Assembly: GCA_028712565.1 (NCBI GenBank)
Contig: JAQTPW010000005.1
Location: forward strand, 1-59,884
From: Minisyncoccota bacterium
Lineage (GTDB): Bacteria > Patescibacteriota > Minisyncoccia > Minisyncoccales > JAQTPW01
Direction: 5' to 3'
DNA: 59,884 nt
Position numbers and translations under genes: made by a program. The notes under the pieces are model-generated. The model searched no databases and was not told the origin of the DNA. It saw only the letters and a program-made list of their open reading frames with translations. Shown here piece after piece: positions 3,865 to 28,274 of the stretch; positions within the stretch are counted from its first letter, which is position 1, and each line of letters opens with the position of its first letter.

Positions 3865-4653
3865 ATGGATAGAAGAAGATTATTAATATTATTGGCGGTC
3901 ATTTTAATTTTGTTAATATTTCTTTTGGTTTGGTTCTTTGGCAGGCAAAATTTAGCGCAATGCCCAACAACTCTTCAGCAATGTGGCAGAGGTTGCATCC
4001 CGCAGAATGCAGATTGTCGCGACAACGGAGTTACTAATAGATATTGTTTGCTGCCTGCCGATAATCCTTATGGCCAGGAAAATTGTTTTGATTGCCCGCA
4101 GGGGCAGGCGTTTTGCGGCCTTTTTTGTTATCCAATAGGCAGAAGATGCTGTTTTGCTGGCGTCTGTCCTAATGATAATAGAAATAATGGCAATAATAAT
4201 GGTAACAATAATGGAAATAACGGAAATGATGATGGAAAAAAAATTGAGGCAAATGCTACAATTTCTTCCGCAGAAGATATTATTTGCACTTTTGAAAAGA
4301 ACGATTTATGGAGTCCTCAAATGCCCTGGGATGGCAGTTATATTTGCAGAGGTTCCGTAACAATTGATTTTCACGGGCTAACATTTCCCGAGAGCCGTAC
4401 TTTGATGCTAAACATAGATCCGAGTCCTGAATTTTCCAGTTTTTCCGAATATGACGCAATAGCTAAAACCCCAATAAATGAAGTGACTTTCAATTATTTC
4501 CAAATAGGAGGGGATTATTTTCAAAAAGGAAAGCCCGAATGTCCAGTTTCTGAATTAAAAGGAAAATTAAAACTTTTTGAAGCAATTCCCGATATAAATC
4601 TTCCTTTTCCTCCCCAATATTTTAATATAGATATAGTTGCGCGTTGTGAATAA
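3865..4653 (+). CDS. Cys-rich secreted/anchored protein with Asn/Gly low-complexity linker
   Basis: N-terminal TM helix, many Cys in the first 90 residues after it, then NDNRNNGNNNGNNNGNNGNDDG. Confidence 0.6.
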   Translation: MDRRRLLILLAVILILLIFLLVWFFGRQNLAQCPTTLQQCGRGCIPQNADCRDNGVTNRYCLLPADNPYGQENCFDCPQGQAFCGLFCYPIGRRCCFAGVCPNDNRNNGNNNGNNNGNNGNDDGKKIEANATISSAEDIICTFEKNDLWSPQMPWDGSYICRGSVTIDFHGLTFPESRTLMLNIDPSPEFSSFSEYDAIAKTPINEVTFNYFQIGGDYFQKGKPECPVSELKGKLKLFEAIPDINLPFPPQYFNIDIVARCE

Positions 4654-7933: not shown

Positions 7934-8950
7934 ATGATCATCGAAATGCAAAAAGGCGCAACAGAAAAAGACATTAGGCAGGTAGTTAAACGAGTTAAGG
8001 AAAATGGATTCGATATCCAAATGAATCAAGGCAAAGAAAAAACAATTGTCGCCGTTCTTGGAAGTGGGACAGAAAGTATTGAGACCCAGATTTTTGAAGT
8101 TCTGCCCGGAGTAGAAAAAGTAATCAGGATTATGAAGCCGTACAAGCTGGCTTCCCGGGATTTCGAAAAAGAAAACACGATTGTGGAGGTGGGTAATGTT
8201 AAAATTGGAGGAAATGCAGTCGTAATAATGGCAGGTCCCTGTTCGGTAGAAAGCAAAGAACAAATTATTTCCTGCGCAAAAATAGGAAAGTCATTGGGGG
8301 CAAAGATATTAAGAGGCGGCGCTTTCAAGCCGCGAACTTCCCCATTTGCCTTTCAGGGATTAAAAGAAGAAGGGCTTAAATTATTGGCAAAAGCCAAAGA
8401 AGAAACCGGATTGCTGATTATTACCGAGATAGTGGCTCCAGAAGATGTGCCGTTGGTCGCAGAATATTCCGATATTCTTCAAATCGGAACAAGAAATATG
8501 CAAAATTACCGGCTTCTTGAAGCGGCTGGAAAATCTGGAAAGCCAGTTCTTTTGAAAAGAGGATTTTCTGCGACTCTGGAGGAATGGCTTACTGCGGCTG
8601 ATTATTTATTAAGGGAGAATAACCCGAACGTAATTTTATGCGAGAGAGGCATAAGGACATTCAGCAATTCAACCCGTTTTACCTTAGATTTGGGAATAGT
8701 GCCGGTCGTGAAAAAATATACGCATTTGCCGATTATTGTTGATCCCAGCCACGCCGCCGGGCATTGGGAATACGTTCCCTCTCTTTCAAAAGCTGCAATT
8801 GCAGCCGGCGCAGACGGAATTTTAATAGAGATTCATCCGCAGCCCAAAAAAGCTCTTTCTGACGGACCCCAATCGTTAACTTTTTCAGATTTTTCCCGAT
8901 TAATGGCAGAACTTAAACTTCTTGCAAAGGCGGTGGGGCGGGAGATCTGA
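7934..8950 (+). CDS. aroF: 3-deoxy-7-phosphoheptulonate (DAHP) synthase, type I-beta, with N-terminal ferredoxin-like regulatory domain
   Basis: AGGAGG at 7921-7926. At 338 aa it is collinear with the Thermotoga-type enzyme as I recall it (GPCSVES, LRGGAFKPRTSPxxFQG, IQIGxRNxQN, PVLLKRG, VDPSH). An extra ~65-aa N-terminal domain is present. Confidence 0.9.
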   Translation: MIIEMQKGATEKDIRQVVKRVKENGFDIQMNQGKEKTIVAVLGSGTESIETQIFEVLPGVEKVIRIMKPYKLASRDFEKENTIVEVGNVKIGGNAVVIMAGPCSVESKEQIISCAKIGKSLGAKILRGGAFKPRTSPFAFQGLKEEGLKLLAKAKEETGLLIITEIVAPEDVPLVAEYSDILQIGTRNMQNYRLLEAAGKSGKPVLLKRGFSATLEEWLTAADYLLRENNPNVILCERGIRTFSNSTRFTLDLGIVPVVKKYTHLPIIVDPSHAAGHWEYVPSLSKAAIAAGADGILIEIHPQPKKALSDGPQSLTFSDFSRLMAELKLLAKAVGREI

Positions 8951-8992
8951 ATGCGAGAAAAGCAATATCCGCATAAAAGCGGAATTGCAAAT

Positions 8993-9018
8993 GCGGCTTC
9001 AGCTTGAAGCCGCTTTTT
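8993..9018 (+). terminator. intrinsic terminator
   Basis: GCGGCTTCA (8993-9001) pairs with TGAAGCCGC (9005-9013) and is followed by TTTTT. Confidence 0.85.
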
Positions 9019-9111
9019 AATTGGTTTTCTTGCGGTTATGAACCTTGGATTCTTAATTATTATCTGTTTGGGTTAGTTTGATAATAGATTCCCGAAACAA
9101 AAATAATGCAG

Positions 9112-9240
9112 GCGTTCGGAAAAATGATTTTCGGTACACGCTCTGCGCCCCTGCGAGGCGCAGGCTCAATTCCCTCGGCAAATTTTCCGCCTTGGGCGGA
9201 AGCCATGCAATTTGCCTGCGGATGGAACCGAAAATCATTT
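9112..9240. repeat. GC-rich structured repeat, copy A
   Basis: A 13-bp closing stem (9112-9124 with 9228-9240) encloses a core whose 77 nt (9131-9207) are identical to 13154-13230. Internal hairpins are CTGCGC/GCGCAG, GGCAAATT/AATTTGCC and TTCCGCC-TTG-GGCGGAA. Confidence 0.85.
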
Positions 9241-9395
9241 CCCCCTCACTAAAAAAAAGCACAACGCGGAATTTACCATGAAAACTTTATTGCCTCGCTT
9301 AAAAATATGTAAGATACTTTGTTGAAAATTTAATTTATTTTTCATAGAAATTATGGTATAAAAAAGAATAATCTAAGAATTCAAAACAGATTAGC

Positions 9396-9507
9396 CCCGT
9401 AGTAGAACCTGAGGGTTCACTACGGGACAGGCCCCGTAATACATCTTCGACTCGCTTCGCGATTACCCCCGCTTATGAAGCGGGAAGTCGAAGATGCTAT
9501 ACGGGGC
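9396..9507 (+). other. GC-rich nested hairpin island (candidate structured leader or small RNA)
   Basis: H1 (9396-9426) has a 13-bp stem with one bulge. H2 (9431-9507) has 8 bp + 11 bp outer helices (GCCCCGTA/TACGGGGC and CATCTTCGACT/AGTCGAAGATG) and an inner CCCGCTT-ATG-AAGCGGG hairpin. Confidence 0.45.
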
Positions 9508-9523
9508 ACGCGCTCTAAGCAAA

Positions 9524-9550
9524 TTAGCACTCGCAGGTCTTGACTGCTAA
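9524..9550 (+). promoter_or_regulatory. CIRCE (HrcA operator)-like inverted repeat
   Basis: The sequence TTAGCACTC-gcaggtctt-GACTGCTAA compares with the consensus TTAGCACTC-N9-GAGTGCTAA, giving 17 of 18 matches with an exact 9-nt spacer. Confidence 0.75.
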
Positions 9551-9567
9551 TTTCAATATGATAGAAT
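9540..9567 (+). promoter_or_regulatory. sigma70-like promoter of clpB overlapping CIRCE
   Basis: TTGACT at 9540-9545, a 16-nt spacer, TG at 9559-9560, and TAGAAT at 9562-9567. Confidence 0.6.
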
Positions 9568-9596
9568 GAAAGGGTAATTAAAATATATTTATTCCA

Positions 9597-12302
9597 ATGA
9601 ACGGCGCAGGTAATTTTACACATAAAGCTCAAGAAGCAATTTTAGCGGCCCAAGATTTGGCAAGAGGAAAAAACCAGCAGCAAATTGATGCTCTCCATTT
9701 GCTTTATTCGCTTTTGGAGCAAGAAGAAAGCGTTGTTTTGAATTTACTCCAAAGAATCGGGGCTGATGTTGAGGGTTTAAAAAGAAAGACAGTTATATCT
9801 TTAGATCGGCTTCCAATTATTGCCGCGCCTCAAGCGTTCGGCCAGTTTTATTTAACCCAGGATATGGCAAAAGTTTTGGACAGGGCAAGGCAGGAATCAA
9901 TGAAAATGGGAGACGAATATATTTCCATTGAGCATTTGTTTTTGGCTCTTTTGGATACAGATACCAAAGCCAAAGAAGTTTTGGATAAAACTGCTTTTTT
10001 GCAGCCGGGAGGCGGGGCAGCTTCATTGGAATTTGGGAAATTGGATTACAATACATTTTTAAAGCAATTGGCGGAAATCAGGGGCGGCCAAAAAATCACA
10101 GATCCAGAACCCGAATCAAAATATCAGGTGGTTGAAAAATACGCCAGAAATTTAACCACTCAGGCAAGACAAGGGAAATTAGATCCGGTAATTGGCAGAG
10201 AAAATGAAATCAGGAGATTAATGCAGGTTTTATCCAGAAGGACAAAAAATAACCCGGTTTTAATTGGAGAGGCGGGAGTCGGGAAAACAGCGATTGTTGA
10301 AGGTTTGGCCCAGAAAATTGTTTCTGGCGACGTTCCGGAAAGCTTGAAAGACAAAGAAATAATTGGTTTGGATTTGGGTTCTTTGATTGCCGGAACAAAA
10401 TACAGAGGGGAATTTGAAGACAGAGTAAAGGCACTTTTGAAAGAAATAAACAGAGCCGGAGGAAGGTATTTGTTATTTATTGACGAGCTTCACACTTTAG
10501 TGGGAGCCGGCGCCGCCGAGGGCGCAATAGATGCCTCAAACTTGTTAAAGCCGGCTTTGGCAAGAGGAGAATTAAGAGCAATCGGAGCCACTACTTTAAA
10601 AGAATATCAAAAATATATAGAAAGAGATTCAGCGCTGGAAAGAAGATTCCAGCCGATTTATGTTGTAGAACCCACAATTGAAGATACGATTTCAATTTTA
10701 AGAGGAATTAAAGAAAAATATGAGTTGCATCACGGGGTAAGGATAAAAGATGCGGCATTGGTCGCTTGCGCGCAGTTAGCCGCAAGATATATTTCTGACA
10801 GGTTTTTGCCGGATAAAGCCGTGGATTTAATGGATGAGGCAATGAGTTCTTTAAGATTGGAAATTGAATCCCAGCCGCAAGAATTGGAGAATTTAAAAGA
10901 AGAAATCCAAAAATTGGAAATTGAAAATGAAGCCATTAAAAAAGAAAAATCTCCCCAGAGAAAAAAAGTAATTTTAAGGCAATTGGCAGATTTGAAAGAA
11001 AAAGCCAAAGGCCTTGAAGTCAAATGGCAGTCAGAAAGAGAAACTATAACTAAAATGCGAAATCTCAAAAAAGAAATTGAGGATGCTCGTTTTGAAGTAG
11101 AAAGAGGGGAGGCCCAAGGGGAGCTTCAAAAAGTGGCAGAAATAAAATACGGAAAAATGCCCCAGCTGCAAAAAGAATTAAAATCTGTTGAGAGAAAATT
11201 GGAGGTTTTCCAAAAAGCCAGGCCAATTTTAAAAGAGGAAGTTGCAGAGGAAGATGTAGCCAGAGTAGTTTCTAGATGGACAGGGATTCCGGTGATGAGA
11301 TTATTAGAAGGCGAAGCAAAAAAACTGGAAAACATGGAGGAGATTTTGGCAAAAAGAGTAGTGGGCCAAGAAGAAGCGATAAGGGCAATTTCAAACGCAA
11401 TCAGGAGATCCCGGGCAGGTATTTCAGAAGAAAACAGGCCCTTGGGTTCGTTTATGTTTTTGGGGCCTACCGGAGTTGGAAAAACGGAAACTGCTCGGGC
11501 TTTGGCTGAATTTTTATTTAACGATGCGAATTCGTTAGTCCGTCTGGATATGTCAGAATATATGGAAGAGCATACTGTTTCCAAAATGATTGGCTCTCCT
11601 CCGGGTTACGTTGGCTATGAAGAAGGTGGCCAGTTAACTGAAAAAATCAGGAGAAGGCCTTACAGTGTAATTCTATTTGATGAAATTGAAAAGGCTCATC
11701 CCAAAGTTTTTAATATCTTGCTTCAGATTTTGGAAGATGGAAGATTAACCGATGCCAAAGGCAGGACAGCTTCTTTTAAAAATGCGATTTTGATTATGAC
11801 TTCGAATATCGGGTCTGAATACATTGCTAAAATGGGGTCTTTGGGATTTCTGGGGCAAGAAGCAGGCGAGAAAAAAGAATCTTTAAAGGATAAAGTAATG
11901 GATTCCTTGAAGGAAAACTTTAGGCCCGAATTTCTAAACAGAATTGATGAAATAATTATTTTTAACTATTTAGGAAGGCAGGAAATAAAACAAATTGTTG
12001 ATTTGGAGCTTCAGAAAGTGGCAAGCCGGCTTTTGGAAAAAAGGATTGAGATAAAGGTGGCGGATTCGGTTAAAGAATTTTTGGCAAAAGAAGGATTTGA
12101 CCAGAATTTGGGAGCAAGACCCTTGAAAAGAGTAATCCAGAGAGATGTTTTGGATCCTCTTTCTATGAAAATTGTAGCCGGCGAGGTAAACGAAGGGGAC
12201 AGATTGTTTATTGATTTGGAAGGGGACAAAATAAAATTTTCAACACAAAGAGATTTAATGGATTTGGGAAAACGGAAAGAAAAAGTGGGGTCGAAAACGT
12301 AG
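9597..12302 (+). CDS. clpB: ATP-dependent chaperone/disaggregase ClpB
   Basis: Clp N-domain, two AAA modules (GEAGVGKT and GPTGVGKT Walker A motifs), and the long coiled-coil middle domain between them, in 901 aa. Confidence 0.95.
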
Positions 12303-12361
12303 AATTTAGAATTTAGGATTTAGCCCTCCCTAGGCGGGTCCGCCCTGGGCGGAGACTTAGA

Positions 12362-13078
12362 ATGGGGAAAAACATACTGAAAATTGTCGGCATTTTTATC
12401 TTAGGGATAGCTGGCGGCATTTTTGCCGACCAGATTTTGTGGCCTTATTTAATTGAAAGGCCGCTTTTTTATAAATACAAATTGGAAAACGTTCCGGCTT
12501 TTGTGAATGAAACAAAAGAAATTACAATTCAGGAAAATACTGCTTTAGAAAATGCAGTTGAAAAAGTAGCGAAAATAGTAGTCGGGATAAAAACAAGAAC
12601 TGCAAACGGGAAAGTTTTTGAGGGTTCAGGATTAATTATTACTTCAGATGGTTTGGTTGTAACTCTGGCAGAATTGGTTCCGCAGGGTTCAAACTTCACT
12701 TTTTTTGTAGATGGCAAAGCCGTTTCTTTTCAGATTTTAAAAAGGGATCTAAAGCTAAATTTGGCTTTAATAAAAATTGATGAAAATAATTTGGGAACCT
12801 CAGGTTTTGCTGATTTGGAAAAAATAAAATTAGGAGAGAGGGTGTTTCTGGTCGGAGTTATTTTTGAAAATAATGTTCCACAAAAAATAGCAAACGAGGG
12901 TATTATAAAAAGTTTTGATCCAAGCATCATAGAAACAAACATCTTTGAAGAAAAAACCATTTTAGGAAGCCCTTTGTTTGATATTGAAGGAAACGCGTTG
13001 GGGTTGAACAAAATTGATTCAGAAGGAAAAGTTATTACCATTCCTATTTCAAAAATCAAATCATTTTGTGGACTTTAA
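12362..13078 (+). CDS. membrane-anchored trypsin-fold (HtrA/S1C-like) protein with degenerate catalytic triad and no PDZ domain
   Basis: GSGLIITSDGLVVTLAELV aligns with GSGFIIxxDGxILTNxHVV (His to Glu). LNLALIKI aligns with TDLAVLKI (Asp to Asn). IETNIFEEKTILGSPL aligns with IQTDAAINPGNSGGPL (Ser to Leu). Confidence 0.6.
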   Translation: MGKNILKIVGIFILGIAGGIFADQILWPYLIERPLFYKYKLENVPAFVNETKEITIQENTALENAVEKVAKIVVGIKTRTANGKVFEGSGLIITSDGLVVTLAELVPQGSNFTFFVDGKAVSFQILKRDLKLNLALIKIDENNLGTSGFADLEKIKLGERVFLVGVIFENNVPQKIANEGIIKSFDPSIIETNIFEEKTILGSPLFDIEGNALGLNKIDSEGKVITIPISKIKSFCGL

Positions 13079-13131
13079 TCTCAAAAGATGGCGGCGGAAG
13101 CCGTTTTTTGTTTGCATCTTGGTTTTCTCGG

Positions 13132-13254
13132 CAATTAGTTTTTCGGCACACGCCTCTGCGCCCCTGCGAGGCGCAGGCTCAATTCCCTCGGCAAATTTTC
13201 CGCCTTGGGCGGAAGCCATGCAATTTGCCTCGGATGGGTCCGAAAAACTAATTG
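13132..13254. repeat. GC-rich structured repeat, copy B
   Basis: A 15-bp closing stem (13132-13146 with 13240-13254) differs in sequence from copy A but is fully complementary. The core 13154-13230 is identical to 9131-9207. Confidence 0.85.
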
Positions 13255-13457
13255 TCTCGAATTATAATTGAAAATTCTGCGAAAGCTTGCCCCATATAAT
13301 CTCGCAGGATTTGTACGGGGTTACCATGAAAACTTTGTTGACTTGAAATTTTATATACCCGGTCAAAAACGCATTAGATTCTAATTTATTTGACTTTTTT
13401 GGGATTTTAACTAAAAAGAAAGTAGTTTCCTTGAAAAAAGAAAAAGGAGGTAGAGGC

Positions 13458-14309
13458 ATGGCGAAAGTTATTATAGTAACTGACAGCGCGGCTGATTTTG
13501 CCCCCGGCGTTTTGGAGGATTTGGACAATGTGCGGATGGTTCCGTTTACTGTAAGATTTGGCGAAGAAGAATATTTAGATAAGGTCACTTTATTTCAGGA
13601 TGAGTTTTTCGCCAAAATGAAAGCCAAAAAAGAAAAAAAATCAGAATATCCAAAAACTGCCCAGCCGTCGCCAGAAGCCTTTAAGAATGTTTTTGAAGAA
13701 AATGGCAAAAAAAGCAAAGAAATTATTTGTATCAATATTTCAAGCAAGGTAAGCGGTGCATATGATTCGGCTTTGCTTGCCGCAAAAAGTTTGCCGAATT
13801 TGGATATCAGGGTTGTTGATACTTTGTCGCTTCTGCTTTGCCAAGGGTTTTTAGTTGAGAAAGCGGCAAGAATGGCAAAGGATGGGGAGGGGTTAGAGAA
13901 GATAGTTAAAACAATAGAGGACCTTAAGCCAAAAATGAAAATGTTTGGGGTGGTGGGAACGTTAGATTATCTTTCTGAAGGAGGAAGAATCGGGCCGGCA
14001 AAACACTTTATTGGTTCTTTACTGAACGTCAAACCCATTTTGAAATTTGACGAGGGTAAAATTGCCGTGGCGGCAATAGCAAGAACCGAACAAAAAGCAA
14101 TGGAAAAAATGATTGAGCTTTTCAAAAAACAAGGCCAAATGAAGAGAGTTGGTGTTGTTCACGCCGACGCAAAAGAAAAAGCGCAGGAATTAGCAAAAAT
14201 GTTGGAAAAGTATTACAAGGATATAAAAATTTTTATTACCCAAACAGGGACAGCTTTAGGGACTCATTCAGGACCCGGATTTTTTGGTCCTTGTGGCCAG
14301 CTAGAATAG
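13458..14309 (+). CDS. DegV-family fatty-acid-binding protein
   Basis: Trimmed to the ATG at 13458, which follows AAGGAGG (13444-13450). The N-terminus KVIIVTDSAADF and overall layout are typical of DegV. Confidence 0.85.
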   Translation: MAKVIIVTDSAADFAPGVLEDLDNVRMVPFTVRFGEEEYLDKVTLFQDEFFAKMKAKKEKKSEYPKTAQPSPEAFKNVFEENGKKSKEIICINISSKVSGAYDSALLAAKSLPNLDIRVVDTLSLLLCQGFLVEKAARMAKDGEGLEKIVKTIEDLKPKMKMFGVVGTLDYLSEGGRIGPAKHFIGSLLNVKPILKFDEGKIAVAAIARTEQKAMEKMIELFKKQGQMKRVGVVHADAKEKAQELAKMLEKYYKDIKIFITQTGTALGTHSGPGFFGPCGQLE

Positions 14310-23333: not shown

Positions 23334-26300
23334 ATGTCTAATATGAAAAGTAAAATAAAAATTTTAACAATTTTAACTTTTGTTATTTGTTTTTCTTTCT
23401 TAACTTTTAAAGCGGCTTTTGCCTACCCGTCTTTTGACATAGGGCCCACAAAATCAACTACCGCTGAAGTGAAAGTAAAAGCTGGTAGTGATTGGCAGAA
23501 TGTAATTTATTTTGTTGCCCAAGCCAGCAGCACAGATGACTATATCAAGCAGGTTCAATTCACGGTTAACTGGATTGCCGGAACTTTTGGCGGAACTGAA
23601 ATTTCTCAAATCGCACTTTATAAAAGCACTGATTCTACTATGGATACCAGCGGCGATACTTTGGTTGCATCAAAAAATTCAGCATCTATTAATTACGGGG
23701 CCTTAACTACATTTACTTGGTCAGGAACTACAACGGAAAATATGTTTTCAGCAACTGGTACTGATTATTGGTTTTATCTGGTTTTAAAAACTGATGCTTC
23801 TGTATGGAGCGACAACGGCGCCGGGGACGACGATCAGATAACGATAAGCATGGCCGCAGCCGATGTCGTATTAAGAGACGTGGCAGGTTCTGGAGATGTT
23901 AATTCTACAAGCACTCCAACTACTGATGCTTTCACAGCCGATGTTACAGCTCCAACATTGCCGGCAGCAAATATTGATGCCAAAAACAGCGTCCAGCCAA
24001 ACACGGTTACTGTTGAAATGAGTGAAGTCATAACCACAAGCACCGCAGAAACGGCAGGAAATTGGACGGTGACAAATAATGGAGCCACTATTACATATAG
24101 TATAGCTTCTGCTTCTTTGGGAGGCGATGGAAAAACAGTTACTTTGACTTTGGCAGCGCTAGATCCTGATGTTGCTACAACATTTATTACAAATGCTGAA
24201 ATAGACAACCATATTAAAGTAATCCCAAGCACTTCAATTGTTGATAAAGCAGGAAATACTTATGGCGGTTCAACTATTACAGAGTCTGGAGGTTCTCCTA
24301 CAAAAGATACAACAGCTCCAACCCTTGCCGCTGCCAATATTGTTGTTGATAACAGCGTCCAGCCAAACACAATTACTTTAACCTTCTCAGAAAAACTAAA
24401 TACTACCACTGCCCAAACCGCAACCAACTGGACAGTGACAAATAATGCAGGAGACATCACATACTCAATAGCTTCTGCATCTCTAAGCAATACAATAGTT
24501 ACTTTAACCTTGGCAACAGTCAACCCATCTAACGCTACCACCTTTATTACCAATGCCGATGTTGACGCCCATATCAAAGTTACTCCTTCGGCGAATATAA
24601 CCGATGTGGCAGGGAAAACATATGCAGCAGGCGAGATTACAGAAGCTGCAGCTGTCCCGACAAAAGACAGCTCAGCACCAACACTCGCCGCAGACGCCAT
24701 TGTAGTCAACAACAATGTCCAGCCAAACACAATTACTTTAACCTTTAATGAAAAGTTAAATACTACGACTGCAAACGATCTTACTCACTGGACAGTGACT
24801 AACAATGCAGGAGACATCACATACTCAATAGCAACTACATCTTTGAGCAATGCAATAGTTACCTTGACTTTGAGCGCAGTTACCGCCACAGATTCTGCTT
24901 CATTTATTACCAATGCCGACGCCGACGCCCACATCAAAGTTACTCCAAGCGCTCATATAACTGATGTAGCAGGCATTACTTACGCAGCAGGTGAAATCAC
25001 AGAAGCAGGAGCTACTCATACAAAAGATGAGACCGCGCCAACTATTCCAGTTGGAAACATTGATGTTGATAACAGCGTCCAGCCAAACACAATTACTCTT
25101 GAAGCCAGTGAAAAACTAAACACCACAACTGCAGAAACCGCAGCCAACTGGACAGTAACCAGCAATTCAGGAGATGTAACATATAGTATTAATTCTGTGT
25201 CTCTGGGCACAGACAGTAAAACAGTTACTTTAACCTTAGCTGCCGTAAATCCAAATTCAGCTACCACTTTTGTTACAGCTTCCCAAATCGCAGCCCATAT
25301 TAAAGTGGTTTTCTCAGGAAGTTCGGTAACTGATGTGGCAGGCACTGCTTTTGCAGACGAAACTGTTACAGAATCAGGTGGTTCTCATACAGAAGACTCA
25401 ACAGCTCCGACTTTAGCTGCCGCAAACATTGTAATTAACAACAGCGTCCAGCCAAACACAATTACTTTAACCTTCTCAGAAAAACTAAACACCACAACCG
25501 CAGAAGATGCAACCCATTACACAATAATAAATAATGCAGGAGATATCACATACTCAATAGCTTCTGCATCTTTGAGCAACACAATAGTTACTTTAACCTT
25601 GTCTGCTGTCAGCTCTGCAGATCCTACCACCTTTATTACCAATGCCGATGTTGACGCCCACATCAAAGTTACTCCAAGCACTCACTTAACAGATGTTTCA
25701 GGAAAAGCATATGAGGCAGGACAAGTTACAGAAGCTGCAGCTGTCCATACAAAAGATTCAACTGCGCCAACCCTGGCCGCTGCCAATATTGTTGTTGATA
25801 ACAGCGTCCAGCCAAACACAATTACTTTAACCTTCTCAGAAAAACTAAACACCACAACCGCAGAAACTCTAACCAACTGGACAGTGACAAATAATGCAGG
25901 AGACATCACATACTCAATAGCTTCTGCATCTCTAAGCAATACAATAGTTACTTTAACCTTGGCAACAGTCAACCCATCTAACGCTACCACCTTTATTACC
26001 AATGCCGATGTTGACGCCCATATCAAAGTTACTCCTTCGGCGAATATAACCGATGTGGCAGGGAAAACATATGCAGCAGGCGAGATTACAGAAGCTGCAG
26101 CTGTCCCGACAAAAGACAGCTCAGCACCAACACTCGCCGCAGACGCCATTGTAGTCAACAACAATGTCCAGCCAAACACAATTACTTTAACCTTTAATGA
26201 AAAGTTAAATACTACGACTGCAAACGATCTTACTCACTGGACAGTGACTAACAATGCAGGAGACATCACATACTCAATAGCAACTACATCTTTGAGCAAT

Positions 26301-28274
26301 GCAATAGTTACCTTGACTTTGAGCGCAGTAAATCCTTCAAACTCTACAACATTTATTACAAATGCTGCAATAGACGATCACATTAAAGTTACTCCAAGTG
26401 CTCATATAACTGATGTAGCAGGCATTACTTACGCAGCAGGTGAAATCACAGAAGCAGGAGCTACTCATACAAAAGATGAGACATCGCCAACCGTTGTGGA
26501 CGATTGGACTTTAAGCATTAATGCTGGCACCATGACTATTAATTTCAGCGAAGTTATGGATAGCTCCCAGAATGTTGATGAAACAAAAATTACCGTTCAA
26601 GAAAACGCCGATACCGATACTGCCAGCCAAATAAGAACTCTTACTGACAGCACTTCTGCTTGGGCAGACAATAATACTTTAACAGTTACTTTGTCTACAG
26701 AGGATTTGGCAGCGATAAAACTTGATACAGGTTTGGGAGTTTCAACAAGCACTTCTTATCTTGAAATAATTGCTTCCAGCAACATGAAAGATGTCGCCGG
26801 CAATAATGTATCTCTAACAAACGTTACAGACGGAGCTTGCATATATGCGACAACATTTACCGGAGACACCACTGGGCCTGCTTTAAGCTATTGGACATTG
26901 AATATAAACACAGGCCATTTGGTAATGACATTTAACGAGCCAGTTAACACTACTACGTTAACTACAACTGGAATTACTGTTCAGGATGCCGCAACAAAGA
27001 CCTGGCAGAGTTTAACTTTGACGGGAGGTACAACCGGAAGCTCAAATGGCACTTCTGTTGATATAGCATTATCAGCAGCGGATTTGAACTCAATTAAAGC
27101 TAAGAGTTTATTAGCAAAAGCCCAAGGATCTTCTTATCTTGTGATAACTTCTTCTGTAATTGATGACATGGCTTCAAATGCCGTAACCGCTATTACCGAT
27201 GGCTCGGGCGTGAATGCTACCAGTTATGTAGCAGATGCGACAAGCCCATCAATCAGCTCTCAATACCCGACTGACGGCTCTACAAATATTGCAGTAGATG
27301 TTGATCCTTATGTTACCTTCAGCGAAGCAATGGATCCATTAACAATTACTGATTCAACTGTTCTTTTGAAAGTATATGATACAGACGCTTCAGTTTCTTC
27401 AGTTGTTTCTCTGCAAGACGGCAATACGAAAGCCGTAATCAGCCCAGATGCAAACTTGTCTCCCGGCGGACACTATTATATATCAGTTACTGCCGGAGCT
27501 AAAGATTTAGAAGCTAATGCAGTAGCAGCTTATAACACAAAAGCAAGCCAAGAATTTACAGTGATATCAAGCAGTACAGTAATCAGCAGCGTGGCGATTA
27601 GCAATATTGCAATGACAACTGCCTCTACCACCTGGACAACTGATTCTTCTTCAACCAGCAATACAGTAGAATATGGCTTAACTTCAGCTTTGGGATCAAC
27701 ACTTGCTGCTGCAACCGGAGATACTGTAAAATCTCATATAGCCAATTTAACAAGTTTGACAGCTGACAGATTATATTACTACAGAGTGAAATCAACTGCA
27801 GGAGGAGTAGACACTTATTCAGACATTTACACCTTTACTACGGCAGCTGCTACAACCGGAATTACAGTAGAAAGCATTTCTATGGTAAAGTACTATGCTA
27901 CAGCTGATAATACCTATGCCAATGGATGGAAATGGAAGATAAGTATTACTGTTCATAATACAGCAGAAACTAGTTTGAAAATGAAATTTACTGACTGGAC
28001 ATCAGGAACTAATACAATAGCTATTTCTGCATCAACCGCAACCACGACAAGAATTGGCTTAACTAACGAGGAAAGCTCTGCTTCTACCTCTACTGTTGAA
28101 GCCGCAACTTACGGAGTTGGAAATGCCTACACCGATCAGGCAACTGCTTTGACCTTAGTTGATGAAGATACGAGCAAGGGAGGAATTCAAGAAACGGTAT
28201 ATCTCTACGTTAAGATTCCAACCGGAACTGCCGGCGGATCTTATTCTACCACTTACGGAATTTACACCTACTAA
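23334..28274 (+). CDS. giant surface protein (1646 aa) with tandem Ig-like repeats, an SbsA/Big_5-like domain and an FN3-like domain
   Basis: Signal peptide. Seven ~121-aa repeats (APTLAAANIVVDNSVQPNTITLTFSEKLNTTTA...) are followed by two divergent copies. Later segments read SPSISSQYPTDGSTNIAVDVDPYVTFSEAMDP and ISNIAMTTASTTWTTDSSSTSNTVEYG. Confidence 0.85.
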   Translation: MSNMKSKIKILTILTFVICFSFLTFKAAFAYPSFDIGPTKSTTAEVKVKAGSDWQNVIYFVAQASSTDDYIKQVQFTVNWIAGTFGGTEISQIALYKSTDSTMDTSGDTLVASKNSASINYGALTTFTWSGTTTENMFSATGTDYWFYLVLKTDASVWSDNGAGDDDQITISMAAADVVLRDVAGSGDVNSTSTPTTDAFTADVTAPTLPAANIDAKNSVQPNTVTVEMSEVITTSTAETAGNWTVTNNGATITYSIASASLGGDGKTVTLTLAALDPDVATTFITNAEIDNHIKVIPSTSIVDKAGNTYGGSTITESGGSPTKDTTAPTLAAANIVVDNSVQPNTITLTFSEKLNTTTAQTATNWTVTNNAGDITYSIASASLSNTIVTLTLATVNPSNATTFITNADVDAHIKVTPSANITDVAGKTYAAGEITEAAAVPTKDSSAPTLAADAIVVNNNVQPNTITLTFNEKLNTTTANDLTHWTVTNNAGDITYSIATTSLSNAIVTLTLSAVTATDSASFITNADADAHIKVTPSAHITDVAGITYAAGEITEAGATHTKDETAPTIPVGNIDVDNSVQPNTITLEASEKLNTTTAETAANWTVTSNSGDVTYSINSVSLGTDSKTVTLTLAAVNPNSATTFVTASQIAAHIKVVFSGSSVTDVAGTAFADETVTESGGSHTEDSTAPTLAAANIVINNSVQPNTITLTFSEKLNTTTAEDATHYTIINNAGDITYSIASASLSNTIVTLTLSAVSSADPTTFITNADVDAHIKVTPSTHLTDVSGKAYEAGQVTEAAAVHTKDSTAPTLAAANIVVDNSVQPNTITLTFSEKLNTTTAETLTNWTVTNNAGDITYSIASASLSNTIVTLTLATVNPSNATTFITNADVDAHIKVTPSANITDVAGKTYAAGEITEAAAVPTKDSSAPTLAADAIVVNNNVQPNTITLTFNEKLNTTTANDLTHWTVTNNAGDITYSIATTSLSNAIVTLTLSAVNPSNSTTFITNAAIDDHIKVTPSAHITDVAGITYAAGEITEAGATHTKDETSPTVVDDWTLSINAGTMTINFSEVMDSSQNVDETKITVQENADTDTASQIRTLTDSTSAWADNNTLTVTLSTEDLAAIKLDTGLGVSTSTSYLEIIASSNMKDVAGNNVSLTNVTDGACIYATTFTGDTTGPALSYWTLNINTGHLVMTFNEPVNTTTLTTTGITVQDAATKTWQSLTLTGGTTGSSNGTSVDIALSAADLNSIKAKSLLAKAQGSSYLVITSSVIDDMASNAVTAITDGSGVNATSYVADATSPSISSQYPTDGSTNIAVDVDPYVTFSEAMDPLTITDSTVLLKVYDTDASVSSVVSLQDGNTKAVISPDANLSPGGHYYISVTAGAKDLEANAVAAYNTKASQEFTVISSSTVISSVAISNIAMTTASTTWTTDSSSTSNTVEYGLTSALGSTLAAATGDTVKSHIANLTSLTADRLYYYRVKSTAGGVDTYSDIYTFTTAAATTGITVESISMVKYYATADNTYANGWKWKISITVHNTAETSLKMKFTDWTSGTNTIAISASTATTTRIGLTNEESSASTSTVEAATYGVGNAYTDQATALTLVDEDTSKGGIQETVYLYVKIPTGTAGGSYSTTYGIYTY
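24422..24880 (+). repeat. 459-bp segment identical to 25871-26329
   Basis: Base-by-base comparison of the two stretches. The offset of 1449 nt equals 483 codons. Flanks of ~100 bp on each side are near-identical. Confidence 0.9.
25871..26329 (+). repeat. second copy of the 459-bp identical segment
   Basis: See 24422-24880. Confidence 0.9.

Follow-up and report, generated by a model that had tools for sequence, protein, structure and literature searches.

The ERIC (IRU) sequences of Enterobacteria and Vibrio are imperfect palindromes of about 127 nt without an open reading frame (ORF), located in transcribed intergenic spacers and untranslated regions. They are variable at orthologous sites, unusually conserved between genera, form a long hairpin in mRNA and can alter mRNA decay. 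The Correia (NEMIS) elements of Neisseria (about 100-155 bp) are co-transcribed, interspersed and variably present, and their paired ends provide a double-stranded RNA that is cut by RNase III. RNase III also removes the intervening sequences (IVS) of 23S rRNA, sporadic structured inserts of about 90-150 nt whose long closing stem aids their tolerance. Roles in mRNA stabilisation have been proposed for REP/BIME sequences. Finally, the attC sites of integrons are structured, strand-specific sequences of 57-141 nt found directly after the stop codon of the upstream ORF, with a conserved structure and variable stems. Two copies of an element that invites comparison with these systems are present in a 59,884-nt stretch of DNA (contig JAQTPW010000005.1, assembly GCA_028712565.1; hereafter the window) from a Minisyncoccota bacterium. 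They belong to a widespread and conserved family of GC-rich, non-coding sequences of about 130-150 nt (typically ~135 nt), found in the candidate phyla radiation (CPR, or Patescibacteria) and also in at least one metagenome-assembled genome (MAG) of the Omnitrophota. The family has apparently not been described so far and is absent from Rfam 15.

The original prediction, made from the window alone, had reported a perfectly identical 77-nt core at two intergenic sites. An exact repeat of this length is indeed recovered by a repeat search, at 9141-9217 and 13154-13230; the second interval had been placed correctly and the first, given as 9131-9207, was 10 nt off. The similarity extends to 108 nt with 95.4% identity in blastn (9128-9234 against 13140-13246). 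Each core is enclosed by a stem of 17-20 bp, which reads AAATGATTTTCGGT / ACCGAAAATCATTT at 9122-9135 / 9227-9240 in copy 1. As had been noted, its inner part (TTTTCGG / CCGAAAA) is common to copies 1 and 2, and its outer part differs in sequence (AAATGA / TCATTT versus CAATTAG / CTAATTG) with complementarity kept. The elevated GC content is equally real, 54-55% in both elements against 36% for the window. On the + strand the predicted fold energies are -54.7 and -60.0 kcal/mol (z = -5.2 and -5.3 against dinucleotide shuffles); the - strand folds about equally well, and z ranges from -4.7 to -6.0 across both strands.

Two copies in 60 kb could represent a private segmental duplication or a chance palindrome of no wider significance, and the limitation to two copies in the window is what such an explanation would predict. 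It is refuted by about 50 homologs in unrelated contigs and two phyla, with covariation, and its residual probability is negligible; the original prediction had rightly rejected a plain duplicated segment. When 185,579 species genomes were scanned with a pattern requiring only the two hairpin stems, two true homologs emerged, one in a MAG of the Saccharibacteria (L001; loci outside the window are designated by L numbers) and one in a MAG of the Omnitrophota (L003), each with a different closing stem. A second pattern, made of the loop and junction nucleotides left free in the first scan, identified 72 loci in metagenomes. Of these, 47 are true homologs, all in low-GC contigs (33-43%); the remaining loci are chance matches in GC-rich coding DNA. 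A covariance model built from 33 distinct copies (R1; R2 denotes a second model) recovered three divergent copies unselected by the patterns, L034 6830-6977, L053 142-299 and L047 6339-6429. The family thus comprises about 50 homologs, in low-GC metagenome contigs and in the two MAGs. In the window, blastn and both covariance models agree on exactly two copies, also in a run with filters off. A third occurrence of the inner hairpin, TCCGCCCTGGGCGGA at 12339-12353, had been proposed; the sequence is present, and its likeness to the element is no greater than chance (blastn E = 1.7), the site being unreported by R1 (E up to 10) and by R2 (E up to 1). The Rfam comparison that had been recommended, which covers riboswitches, ribozymes, small RNAs, leaders, OMEGA/HEARO and Y RNA among others, gave no gathering-level match in the window and, at E <= 10, none overlapping the element in 8900-13500 and none on a typical (L005 3690-3880) or a divergent (L034 6810-6990) homolog. 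ARAGORN found no tRNA or tmRNA, and no description of the element was found in the literature searched, literal sequence strings included. As for a phage vector, three scans of viral contigs yielded no true copy (0, 0 and 117 chance matches), and none of the 80 loci scanned with R1 among those 117 matches scored.

All members fold, on the + strand, as a three-way junction of helices P1, P2 and P3. P1 is a closing stem of ~20-25 bp with a conserved inner part and a freely variable middle of 3 bp plus a bulge; P2 is a hairpin of 9-10 bp with a 7-nt loop, CCAGCGA in most copies; and P3 is a second hairpin, which has CCAUGC as a conserved bulge and a tip whose length varies. The consensus begins with the stop codon, 0-5 nt, CGCUCGGGAA, a 4-nt variable segment, AUUUU(CGGG or UAGG)AC and AC. 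It continues through P2 (GCUCUGCGCC-CCAGCGA-GGCGCAAGC, then UCAGUU) and P3 (CCUCGGCAAAUUUU, the variable tip, AAA-CCAUGC-AAUUUGCCUGCGG, then AUG), and ends with GUCC(CGAAAAU or AUAAAAAU), a 3-nt variable segment and UUCCCUCGCUU. The base of P1 is formed by a two-fold symmetric motif, 5'-YUCR paired with 5'-YUCR, in which tandem U.C mismatches lie between two pairs. The outer pairs of this motif covary (CUCG/CUCG to UUCA/UUCA), and a weakly supported 2-bp helix lies beyond it. This symmetry accounts for the apparent 4-nt direct repeat at the borders, which is therefore not a target-site duplication.

The structure is strongly supported by covariation. In alignment A3 (37 aligned copies, 44 pairs), standard pairs occupy 96.6% of the cells, compared with 84.8% in 500 shuffled controls and 33-49% when partners are slid. 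Changes on both sides are seen in 31 of the 44 pairs, against a mean of 11.4 in the shuffles, and the covariation score is 0.315 versus 0.099; no shuffle out of 500 reaches the observed values. Two-sided compensatory changes occur in the closing stem, in P2 and in P3 (10 pairs in helices 4 and 5, which belong to P3), so that the selection on structure proposed from the two window copies is borne out in the 37 aligned homologs. Moreover, the P2 stem is wholly swapped in L034b and L053b (CUGCGCC/GGCGCAG to AAAUUUC/GAAAUUU), with the loop retained as CCA.CGA in L034b, and divergent copies still have CUCGGC, ACCAUG and GCCUGCG(G/A)A as motifs at the junction. Covariation demonstrates a conserved structure without distinguishing RNA from single-stranded DNA (ssDNA). 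The model is strongly strand-specific, with a score of 137 bits for the + strand as opposed to 8 for the other. Wobble usage is not decisive and settles neither strand nor molecule: over all helices, 23 G.U cells stand against 21 A.C cells, a near-equality expected if daughter copies decay neutrally. A pseudoknot proposed between the CCAU bulge and AUGG in segment J3/1 is not supported; one compensatory change is seen (L003), but 82 of 500 shuffles reach this value. A coding function was discarded. ORFs overlap both window copies (9078-9281 and 13014-13271), and the substitution pattern is RNA-like. In copy 1 a frame of 15 codons begins at the conserved AUG of the P3 bulge; this frame is shifted in copy 2 by a 1-nt indel (GCCTGCGG versus GCCT-CGG), and the AUG varies elsewhere to GUG, CUG and AUA.

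Among the 36 tabulated copies outside the window, 27 begin 1-8 nt after the stop codon of an ORF on the same strand, and the next gene on that strand starts 2-72 nt downstream of the element. All but one of 38 copies have the orientation of the gene that precedes them. Upstream genes, identified by Pfam, encode S8, S7, L14, L23, S9, RRF, SecA, RNase III, a CCA-adding/HD enzyme and GrpE. Downstream genes encode L6, EF-G, L24, L2, S16, LysRS and others, including RseP-like, NUDIX, PD-(D/E)XK and glycosyltransferase proteins, with clpB and degV in the window. The operon junctions that carry the element include S7/EF-G, L23/L2, L14/L24 and S8/L6. In L010, L018, L044 and L049 a CCA-adding/HD enzyme gene, the element and tRNA-Pro(CGG) succeed one another, with 9-110 nt separating the element from the start of the tRNA; tRNA-Ala(CGC) then follows in the three of those four contigs long enough to show it, and all of these features share one strand. 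DAHP synthase, read from its conserved C-terminus, lies upstream in L001 and L013, as before copy 1. There are exceptions: in L041 the upstream ORF runs into P1 and ends at the UAG of AUUUUUAGG, and L053 has two copies tail to tail, the second antisense to its neighbours. Some downstream starts lie only 2-14 nt after P1 and have no Shine-Dalgarno sequence. The spacer between element and start is filled by short tandem ATTCGTA / TATTCGTAA repeats in L025 (~9085-9130), L027 (~4245-4282) and L062 (~1505-1530), and by TCTAATA repeats in L005; judging from sequence, such repeats may be secondary spacer expansions that restore the initiation region.

Several simple functions are excluded by this position. 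The element lies inside operons that bacteria in general co-transcribe, and P1 is followed by A-rich sequence (consensus ...CUCGCUUaaaaa) with no U-tract, so that it is not an intrinsic terminator; the terminator scan flags 8993-9013 and 13090-13105 in the window, neither of which is an element. It is not a riboswitch or 5' leader, since the downstream genes share no function; this candidate was also rejected because the position is fixed to the upstream stop codon, not to the downstream start. Nor is the family described by an independent small-RNA gene flanked by a terminator on one side and a promoter on the other, as the window copies had seemed to suggest: most relatives abut the upstream stop codon, inside operons, and have no promoter of their own. 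The wider version of this idea, a gene for a trans-acting small RNA or self-cleaving ribozyme whose core of ~100 nt would be excised via P1 from highly expressed transcripts while its copies hitch-hike on operons, is considered very unlikely. It would agree with the very high conservation of junction and loop nucleotides across subfamilies and two phyla, with a variable P1 resembling an rRNA-like processing stem, with the preferential link to highly expressed genes and with a promoter-like sequence (TTGATA-18-AATAAT) just upstream of copy 1. However, copy 2 has no promoter match, no terminator or defined 3' end follows the element, no ribozyme or small RNA of Rfam matches even at E <= 10, the only proposed tertiary pairing is the unsupported one mentioned above, and copies are dispensable at any given locus, decayed ones being common.

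The presence of the element at orthologous junctions is patchy. The L23-L2 junction is occupied in L034 and L033 and empty in L005, L021, L038 (TAAAAATTATG) and L027 (TAATATG); S8-L6 is occupied in L011, L016, L023, L066 and L075 and empty in L027; and L14-L24 is occupied in L027 and empty in L021, with overlapping stop and start (ATATGA), and in L023. The contig of a related strain (~90-99% identity) has just 38 nt at L14-L24. The syntenic DAHP-synthase/clpB/peptidase loci of window relatives, in Nealsonbacteria-like contigs (74-78% protein identity), contain no copy, and their spacers have diverged too far for insertion points to be placed. Logan contigs of the source metagenome are interrupted within the repeat, and none shows a joint that skips the element. 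Copies of the same genome share a lineage-specific, near-identical core (copies 1 and 2; L025 and L027), and L034 carries two very different subfamilies in one genome. Cores are 84-98% identical between organisms; adjacent third codon positions are ~40-50% identical in the S8 gene and 66-89% in the S7 gene. Individual copies are rearranged or decayed: L044 has a 35-nt insertion in J3/1, and 5'-truncated remnants keeping only the 3' arm of P1 trail full copies in L005, L023 (two) and L034. In L068, three tandem repeats of ~47 nt (1319-1465) immediately precede a full element; each includes the 3' end of rpsI (S9) with its final codons and stop codon, as well as CGCTCGG and a small hairpin. Short forms without a core, in which only the base of P1 is left (YUCG-GC..GC-CUCGCUU), occur at L034 1167-1190, at L068 1444-1462 and on one RNA contig that aligns to L011 at 805; from their sequence they are probably internal-deletion derivatives. 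The converse possibility, insertion of the element into a pre-existing small hairpin, was rejected: such short forms are not enriched (31 observed, 41 in shuffles), and the canonical terminators of the window sit upstream of the elements rather than around them, which speaks against the insertion into terminator-like hairpins put forward in the original prediction.

In metatranscriptome contigs the element is contiguous with the S8 coding sequence. One further contig spans L14-L24 with an unaligned insert of 172 nt, its letters not inspected, where L027 has a copy. These contigs fit co-transcription without complete removal, subject to the caveat that they are assembled and that DNA carry-over is possible. 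The sense orientation, too, agrees with a connection to transcription, but could equally stem from the replication strand, the flanking genes being nearly all co-oriented.

These observations are best explained, with about an even balance of probability, by a non-autonomous mobile (invasive) element that occupies transcribed spacers directly downstream of stop codons and forms a closed hairpin module within the mRNA. Such an element would settle in transcribed spacers in sense orientation, mostly 1-8 nt after a stop codon and even between translationally coupled ribosomal-protein genes, and would be co-transcribed with its host genes. In the RNA, where it is predicted to fold in vivo, P1 would zip the ends of the insert together into a closed side-branch, leaving the upstream stop beside the downstream start region; this would explain why the element is tolerated inside essential operons. 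Translational coupling could thereby be preserved, the long double-stranded RNA of P1 is a plausible determinant of RNase III processing or of stability, and the conserved core may be the part recognised by the copying machinery.

Mobility is nevertheless itself inferred, and a number of findings weigh against it. The original prediction had taken identical termini and target-site duplications as the signs of a mobile element. In a classical MITE (derived from a DDE transposon) the ends would be inverted repeats of conserved sequence. The termini of the element are conserved, the outermost GCYCGGGAA / UUCCCUCGC being mostly complementary, but they contain a non-inverted UC/UC, the middles of the arms are variable and strict inverted repeats are not formed. 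No consistent target-site duplication was found in 35 flank pairs inspected (a candidate stop-codon duplication, with TAA/TAG on both sides of some copies, proved inconsistent). No autonomous parent, transposase or reverse transcriptase was found in ~350 kb of loci or in the annotated part of the window. The same junctions (S8-L6, S7-EF-G, S9 and CCA-enzyme/tRNA-Pro) are occupied in several organisms, which could reflect long vertical retention, hence host function, rather than repeated insertion. Copies 1 and 2 differ by four compensated double changes in P1 and by none in the 77-nt core, so that simple copy-and-decay is insufficient and core homogenisation, core replacement or local selection on P1 is needed. 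In the core helices, 12 G.U cells against 5 A.C cells hint at selection on + strand pairing in individual copies. The window copies are atypical: each starts past a canonical terminator, the distances from the stop codon being 165 and 49 nt. Lastly, the RNA data are assembled contigs only; they lack read ends, and DNA carry-over may contribute to them.

Part of this evidence would be accounted for by a cis-acting mRNA element beneficial to the host, an intercistronic punctuation kept by selection at each locus. It could act through endonucleolytic processing (by RNase III in P1, or by cutting at the symmetric U.C loop), protection of mRNA 3' ends or tuning of termination-reinitiation. A helix 1-8 nt after the stop codon sits at the mRNA entrance of the ribosome during termination, and the fixed distance from stop codons is what this explanation would predict. 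It is also consistent with the reuse of junction types (S8-L6 five times, S7-EF-G three, S9 three, CCA-enzyme/tRNA-Pro four), with compensated P1 changes between loci around an invariant core, with the G.U excess in the core helices and with a core more conserved than neighbouring synonymous sites. The starts that closely follow P1 and lack a Shine-Dalgarno sequence point in the same direction; a subgroup of Parcubacteria has no anti-Shine-Dalgarno motif (PMC9297842). On the other hand, the subset of junctions differs per genome, and the empty sites of close relatives, with overlapping stop and start, evidently work. Decayed remnants and truncated copies exist, one L053 copy is antisense, the window copies sit behind terminators, and the flanking genes have no common function. 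A host function is thus regarded as possible though somewhat unlikely.

A third explanation places recognition at the DNA level: folded ssDNA or a cruciform would be recognised by a trans-acting HUH/Y1 transposase or a similar enzyme, on the pattern of REP/REPIN-RAYT or IS200/IS605-derived elements, and transcription would be incidental. IS608 and RAYT proteins recognise ssDNA hairpins by structure plus sequence. Strand-specific conserved loops combined with covarying stems are expected of such recognition, and the lack of a target-site duplication and of a strict terminal inverted repeat, the tetranucleotide YTCR conserved at both borders and the similar overall number of G.T and A.C cells all agree with it. 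The sense orientation could equally reflect the lagging-strand template. Y1 transposases do occur in related genomes. In L082, a gene for a 236-aa Y1_Tnp protein (IS200/RAYT-like; 16321-17031) follows the trypsin-like peptidase gene, where the window has copy 2. Hairpins of the sequence ATTGATTTCGTAAATCAAT, unrelated to the element, border this gene at either end (~16290-16320 and 17085-17115), an observation that counts both against this explanation and against the preferred one. In addition, no Y1 gene adjoins any copy, YUCR/YUCR is explained as a symmetric internal loop with covarying outer pairs, and 37 of 38 copies are sense to the upstream gene. REP units are simple hairpins of ~20-40 nt (PMC3733652), not three-way junctions of 135 nt. 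A purely DNA-level element is considered quite unlikely.

It is also conceivable, although rather unlikely, that the element represents a previously undescribed kind of bacterial RNA-level entity. As an excised punctuation RNA, it may be cut out of operon mRNAs at the symmetric U.C loops, by itself or by an enzyme, and a stable or circular RNA with the three-way junction might be set free in the process. Alternatively, as a retro-mobile RNA resembling a short interspersed nuclear element (SINE), it may integrate into abundant mRNAs just behind the stop codon. Either version would explain the sense orientation, the association with highly expressed genes, the 5'-truncated remnants and the hyper-conserved core.

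The two window copies illustrate the anatomy of the family. Both lie on the + strand. Copy 1 occupies 9112-9250 (GCGTTCGG ... CCCTCACT) and is matched by R1 at 9106-9256 (137.3 bits, E = 7.5e-40) and by R2 (136.6 bits). It shows the outer 2-bp helix, the symmetric U.C/C.U loop, P1 and the three-way junction. The arms of P1, at 9118-9137 (GGAAAAATGATTTTCGGTAC) and 9224-9242 (GGAACCGAAAATCATTTCC), are supported by the inverted repeat (9122-9135 / 9227-9240, 14/14 bp), by the minimum-free-energy fold and by the alignment to the covariance model. From the fold, P2 lies at 9140-9165 (stem CUCUGCGCC / GGCGCAGG, 7-nt loop CCUGCGA) and P3 at 9171-9222 (base CUCGGC...GCCUGCGG, the conserved CCAUGC bulge and the tip UCCGCC-UUG-GGCGGA). 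Copy 2 occupies 13124-13261 (TTCTCGGC ... GTCTCGAA) and is matched by R1 at 13118-13269 (117.8 bits, E = 7.3e-34) and by R2 (119.6 bits). Its P1 arms, at 13130-13146 (GGCAATTAGTTTTTCGG) and 13240-13256 (CCGAAAAACTAATTGTC), are supported by the fold and by an inverted repeat of 22 nt with 86% matches (13125-13146 / 13240-13261); P2 and most of P3 are contained in the shared 77-nt core.

In the window, the DAHP synthase gene (7934-8950) and its canonical terminator (8993-9013) precede copy 1, which is followed by clpB (9597-12302), the trypsin-like peptidase gene (12362-13078) with its terminator (13090-13105), copy 2 and degV (13431-14309). The sequencing runs are of DNA from a landfill metagenome. 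The closest DAHP synthases (76% identity) have the same gene order and are annotated as Candidatus Nealsonbacteria, so that the window can be assigned to the Parcubacteria within the CPR. Downstream of copy 1, a 5'-truncated remnant of another copy (GCGGAATTTACCATGAAAACTTTATTGCCTCGCTT, 9266-9300, + strand) extends from segment J3/1 through the 3' arm of P1, and its 12-mer ATTGCCTCGCTT at 9289-9300 is the 3' end of the copies in L008 and L053. A second, more decayed remnant (13303-13348, + strand) is homologous to it, as a repeat of 91% identity. A 21-nt pattern shared by the two remnants matches only there, against 0 expected. The promoter-like block which had been thought common to clpB and degV (9275-9295 and 13323-13343) is better read as such a 3'-arm remnant of another family copy. 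The clpB gene has its own promoter-like site at 9540-9567, overlapping a CIRCE-like operator (9524-9550), which places copy 1 outside the clpB leader.

Other features of these spacers can be recorded. The best sigma-70-like promoter (TTGACT-16-TAGAAT, TG-extended) lies ~30 nt before clpB. The CIRCE-like operator overlapping it, an inverted repeat of the form TTAGCACTC-N9-GACTGCTAA, suggests that the heat-shock response of clpB in this CPR organism is controlled in the HrcA manner. The spacer that separates copy 1 from clpB also contains, at 9393-9510, two more GC-rich hairpins, CCCCGTAGTAGAACC...GGTTCACTACGGG and GGCCCCGTAATACATCTTCGACT...AGTCGAAGATGCTATACGGGGC, both beginning GCCCCGTA; the predicted fold reaches -65.8 kcal/mol for 136 nt, and no Rfam match was found there. 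In L077 (11264-11340), a tRNA-Val(AAC) and a DUF2283 gene lie between DAHP synthase and clpB, a spacer that would on this comparison be an insertion hot spot across the lineage. In L079, a Nealsonbacteria contig, tandem repeats of ~47 nt (ATAATTGCTCCGCGAAAGCGGAGCAAATATTTGCGAAGCTC; ~14780-14960), each with a small hairpin, lie between the peptidase and LTD genes, in the spacer that holds copy 2 in the window. Leaving aside ORFs overlapping a larger one, every window ORF of at least 130 aa is encoded on the + strand, and these ORFs are tightly packed; the spacers with copies 1 and 2, of 647 and 353 nt, are among the largest. Farther downstream, a 1646-aa ORF (23334-28274) carries Big_5 and other Ig-like domains and contains six tandem 360-nt units (24299-26476; 71% matches). 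From their sequences, this protein and an 897-aa LTD/PKD protein encoded downstream of degV (14541-17234) look like large repetitive surface proteins.

CPR bacteria represent a large share of bacterial diversity, and their non-coding RNA and mobile DNA are almost unstudied. The operons in which the element resides are the cell's most conserved ones, and the genes on either side of it are as a rule coupled in translation. A mobile element of this kind would offer a tractable case of a parasite invading essential operons harmlessly, and a marker for strain-level dynamics in uncultured lineages. If instead it is functional, it would point to a lineage-specific processing or coupling of polycistronic mRNAs in organisms with reduced ribosomes, partly without an anti-Shine-Dalgarno sequence. 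Current annotation probably misses it or reports short ORFs in its place, as with the two overlapping the window copies; with the covariance model, thousands of MAGs can now be annotated for it.

Among known systems, the lifestyle of the element appears nearest to that of ERIC/IRU and Correia sequences, with looser analogies to REP/BIME, rRNA intervening sequences and attC. Of the three identities originally offered, small RNA, REP/BIME-like element or insertion into terminator hairpins, the REP/BIME-like one is closest in lifestyle (interspersed, intergenic, patchy in presence), and the other two are unsupported. Like ERIC/IRU, the element is a palindrome-type sequence without an ORF, located in transcribed spacers and patchy at orthologous sites. 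However, ERIC is a simple long hairpin, found in both orientations and with a reported TA duplication, whereas the present element is a three-way junction with a conserved loop, bulge and junction, nearly always in sense orientation 1-8 nt after a stop codon, without a duplication and without sequence similarity to ERIC. Correia sequences are of similar size, and are likewise interspersed and variably present with paired ends. They differ in their terminal inverted repeats of 26 bp and fixed sequence and in their TA duplications; the element has a variable mid-stem, no duplication and a three-way-junction interior.

The resemblance to REP/BIME/REPIN sequences lies in the GC-rich extragenic palindromes near stop codons and in operons, the multiple copies and the border tetranucleotide. 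REP sequences, however, are simple hairpins of 20-40 nt (PMC3733652). They bear a GTAG or CGTC tag, are usually present in hundreds of copies and are linked to a gene for the mobilising RAYT (Y1) transposase, which the same units flank. The element, in contrast, is ~135 nt long with three helices, reaches about two copies per 60 kb and has no RAYT partner among the loci searched. It shares a structured insert with a long closing stem with IVS, which are found in rRNA helices; it follows mRNA stop codons, and none of the copies found is in an rRNA gene. With attC it shares a strand-specific structure directly behind the stop codon. Nevertheless the R''/R' core sites of attC (RYYYAAC...GTTRRRY) are absent, the ends being CGCUCGGGAA ... 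UUCCCUCGCUU, the upstream genes are core housekeeping genes in normal operons rather than cassettes, and no integrase lies nearby. In the defining features that were tested, the element departs from each of these kinds: it has no strict terminal inverted repeats combined with target-site duplications, no RAYT partner, no core sites of the attC type and no U-tract as in a terminator. It is distinguished by its three-way-junction core, its near-strict sense orientation, its adjacency to stop codons and its occurrence in ribosomal-protein operons across CPR and Omnitrophota.

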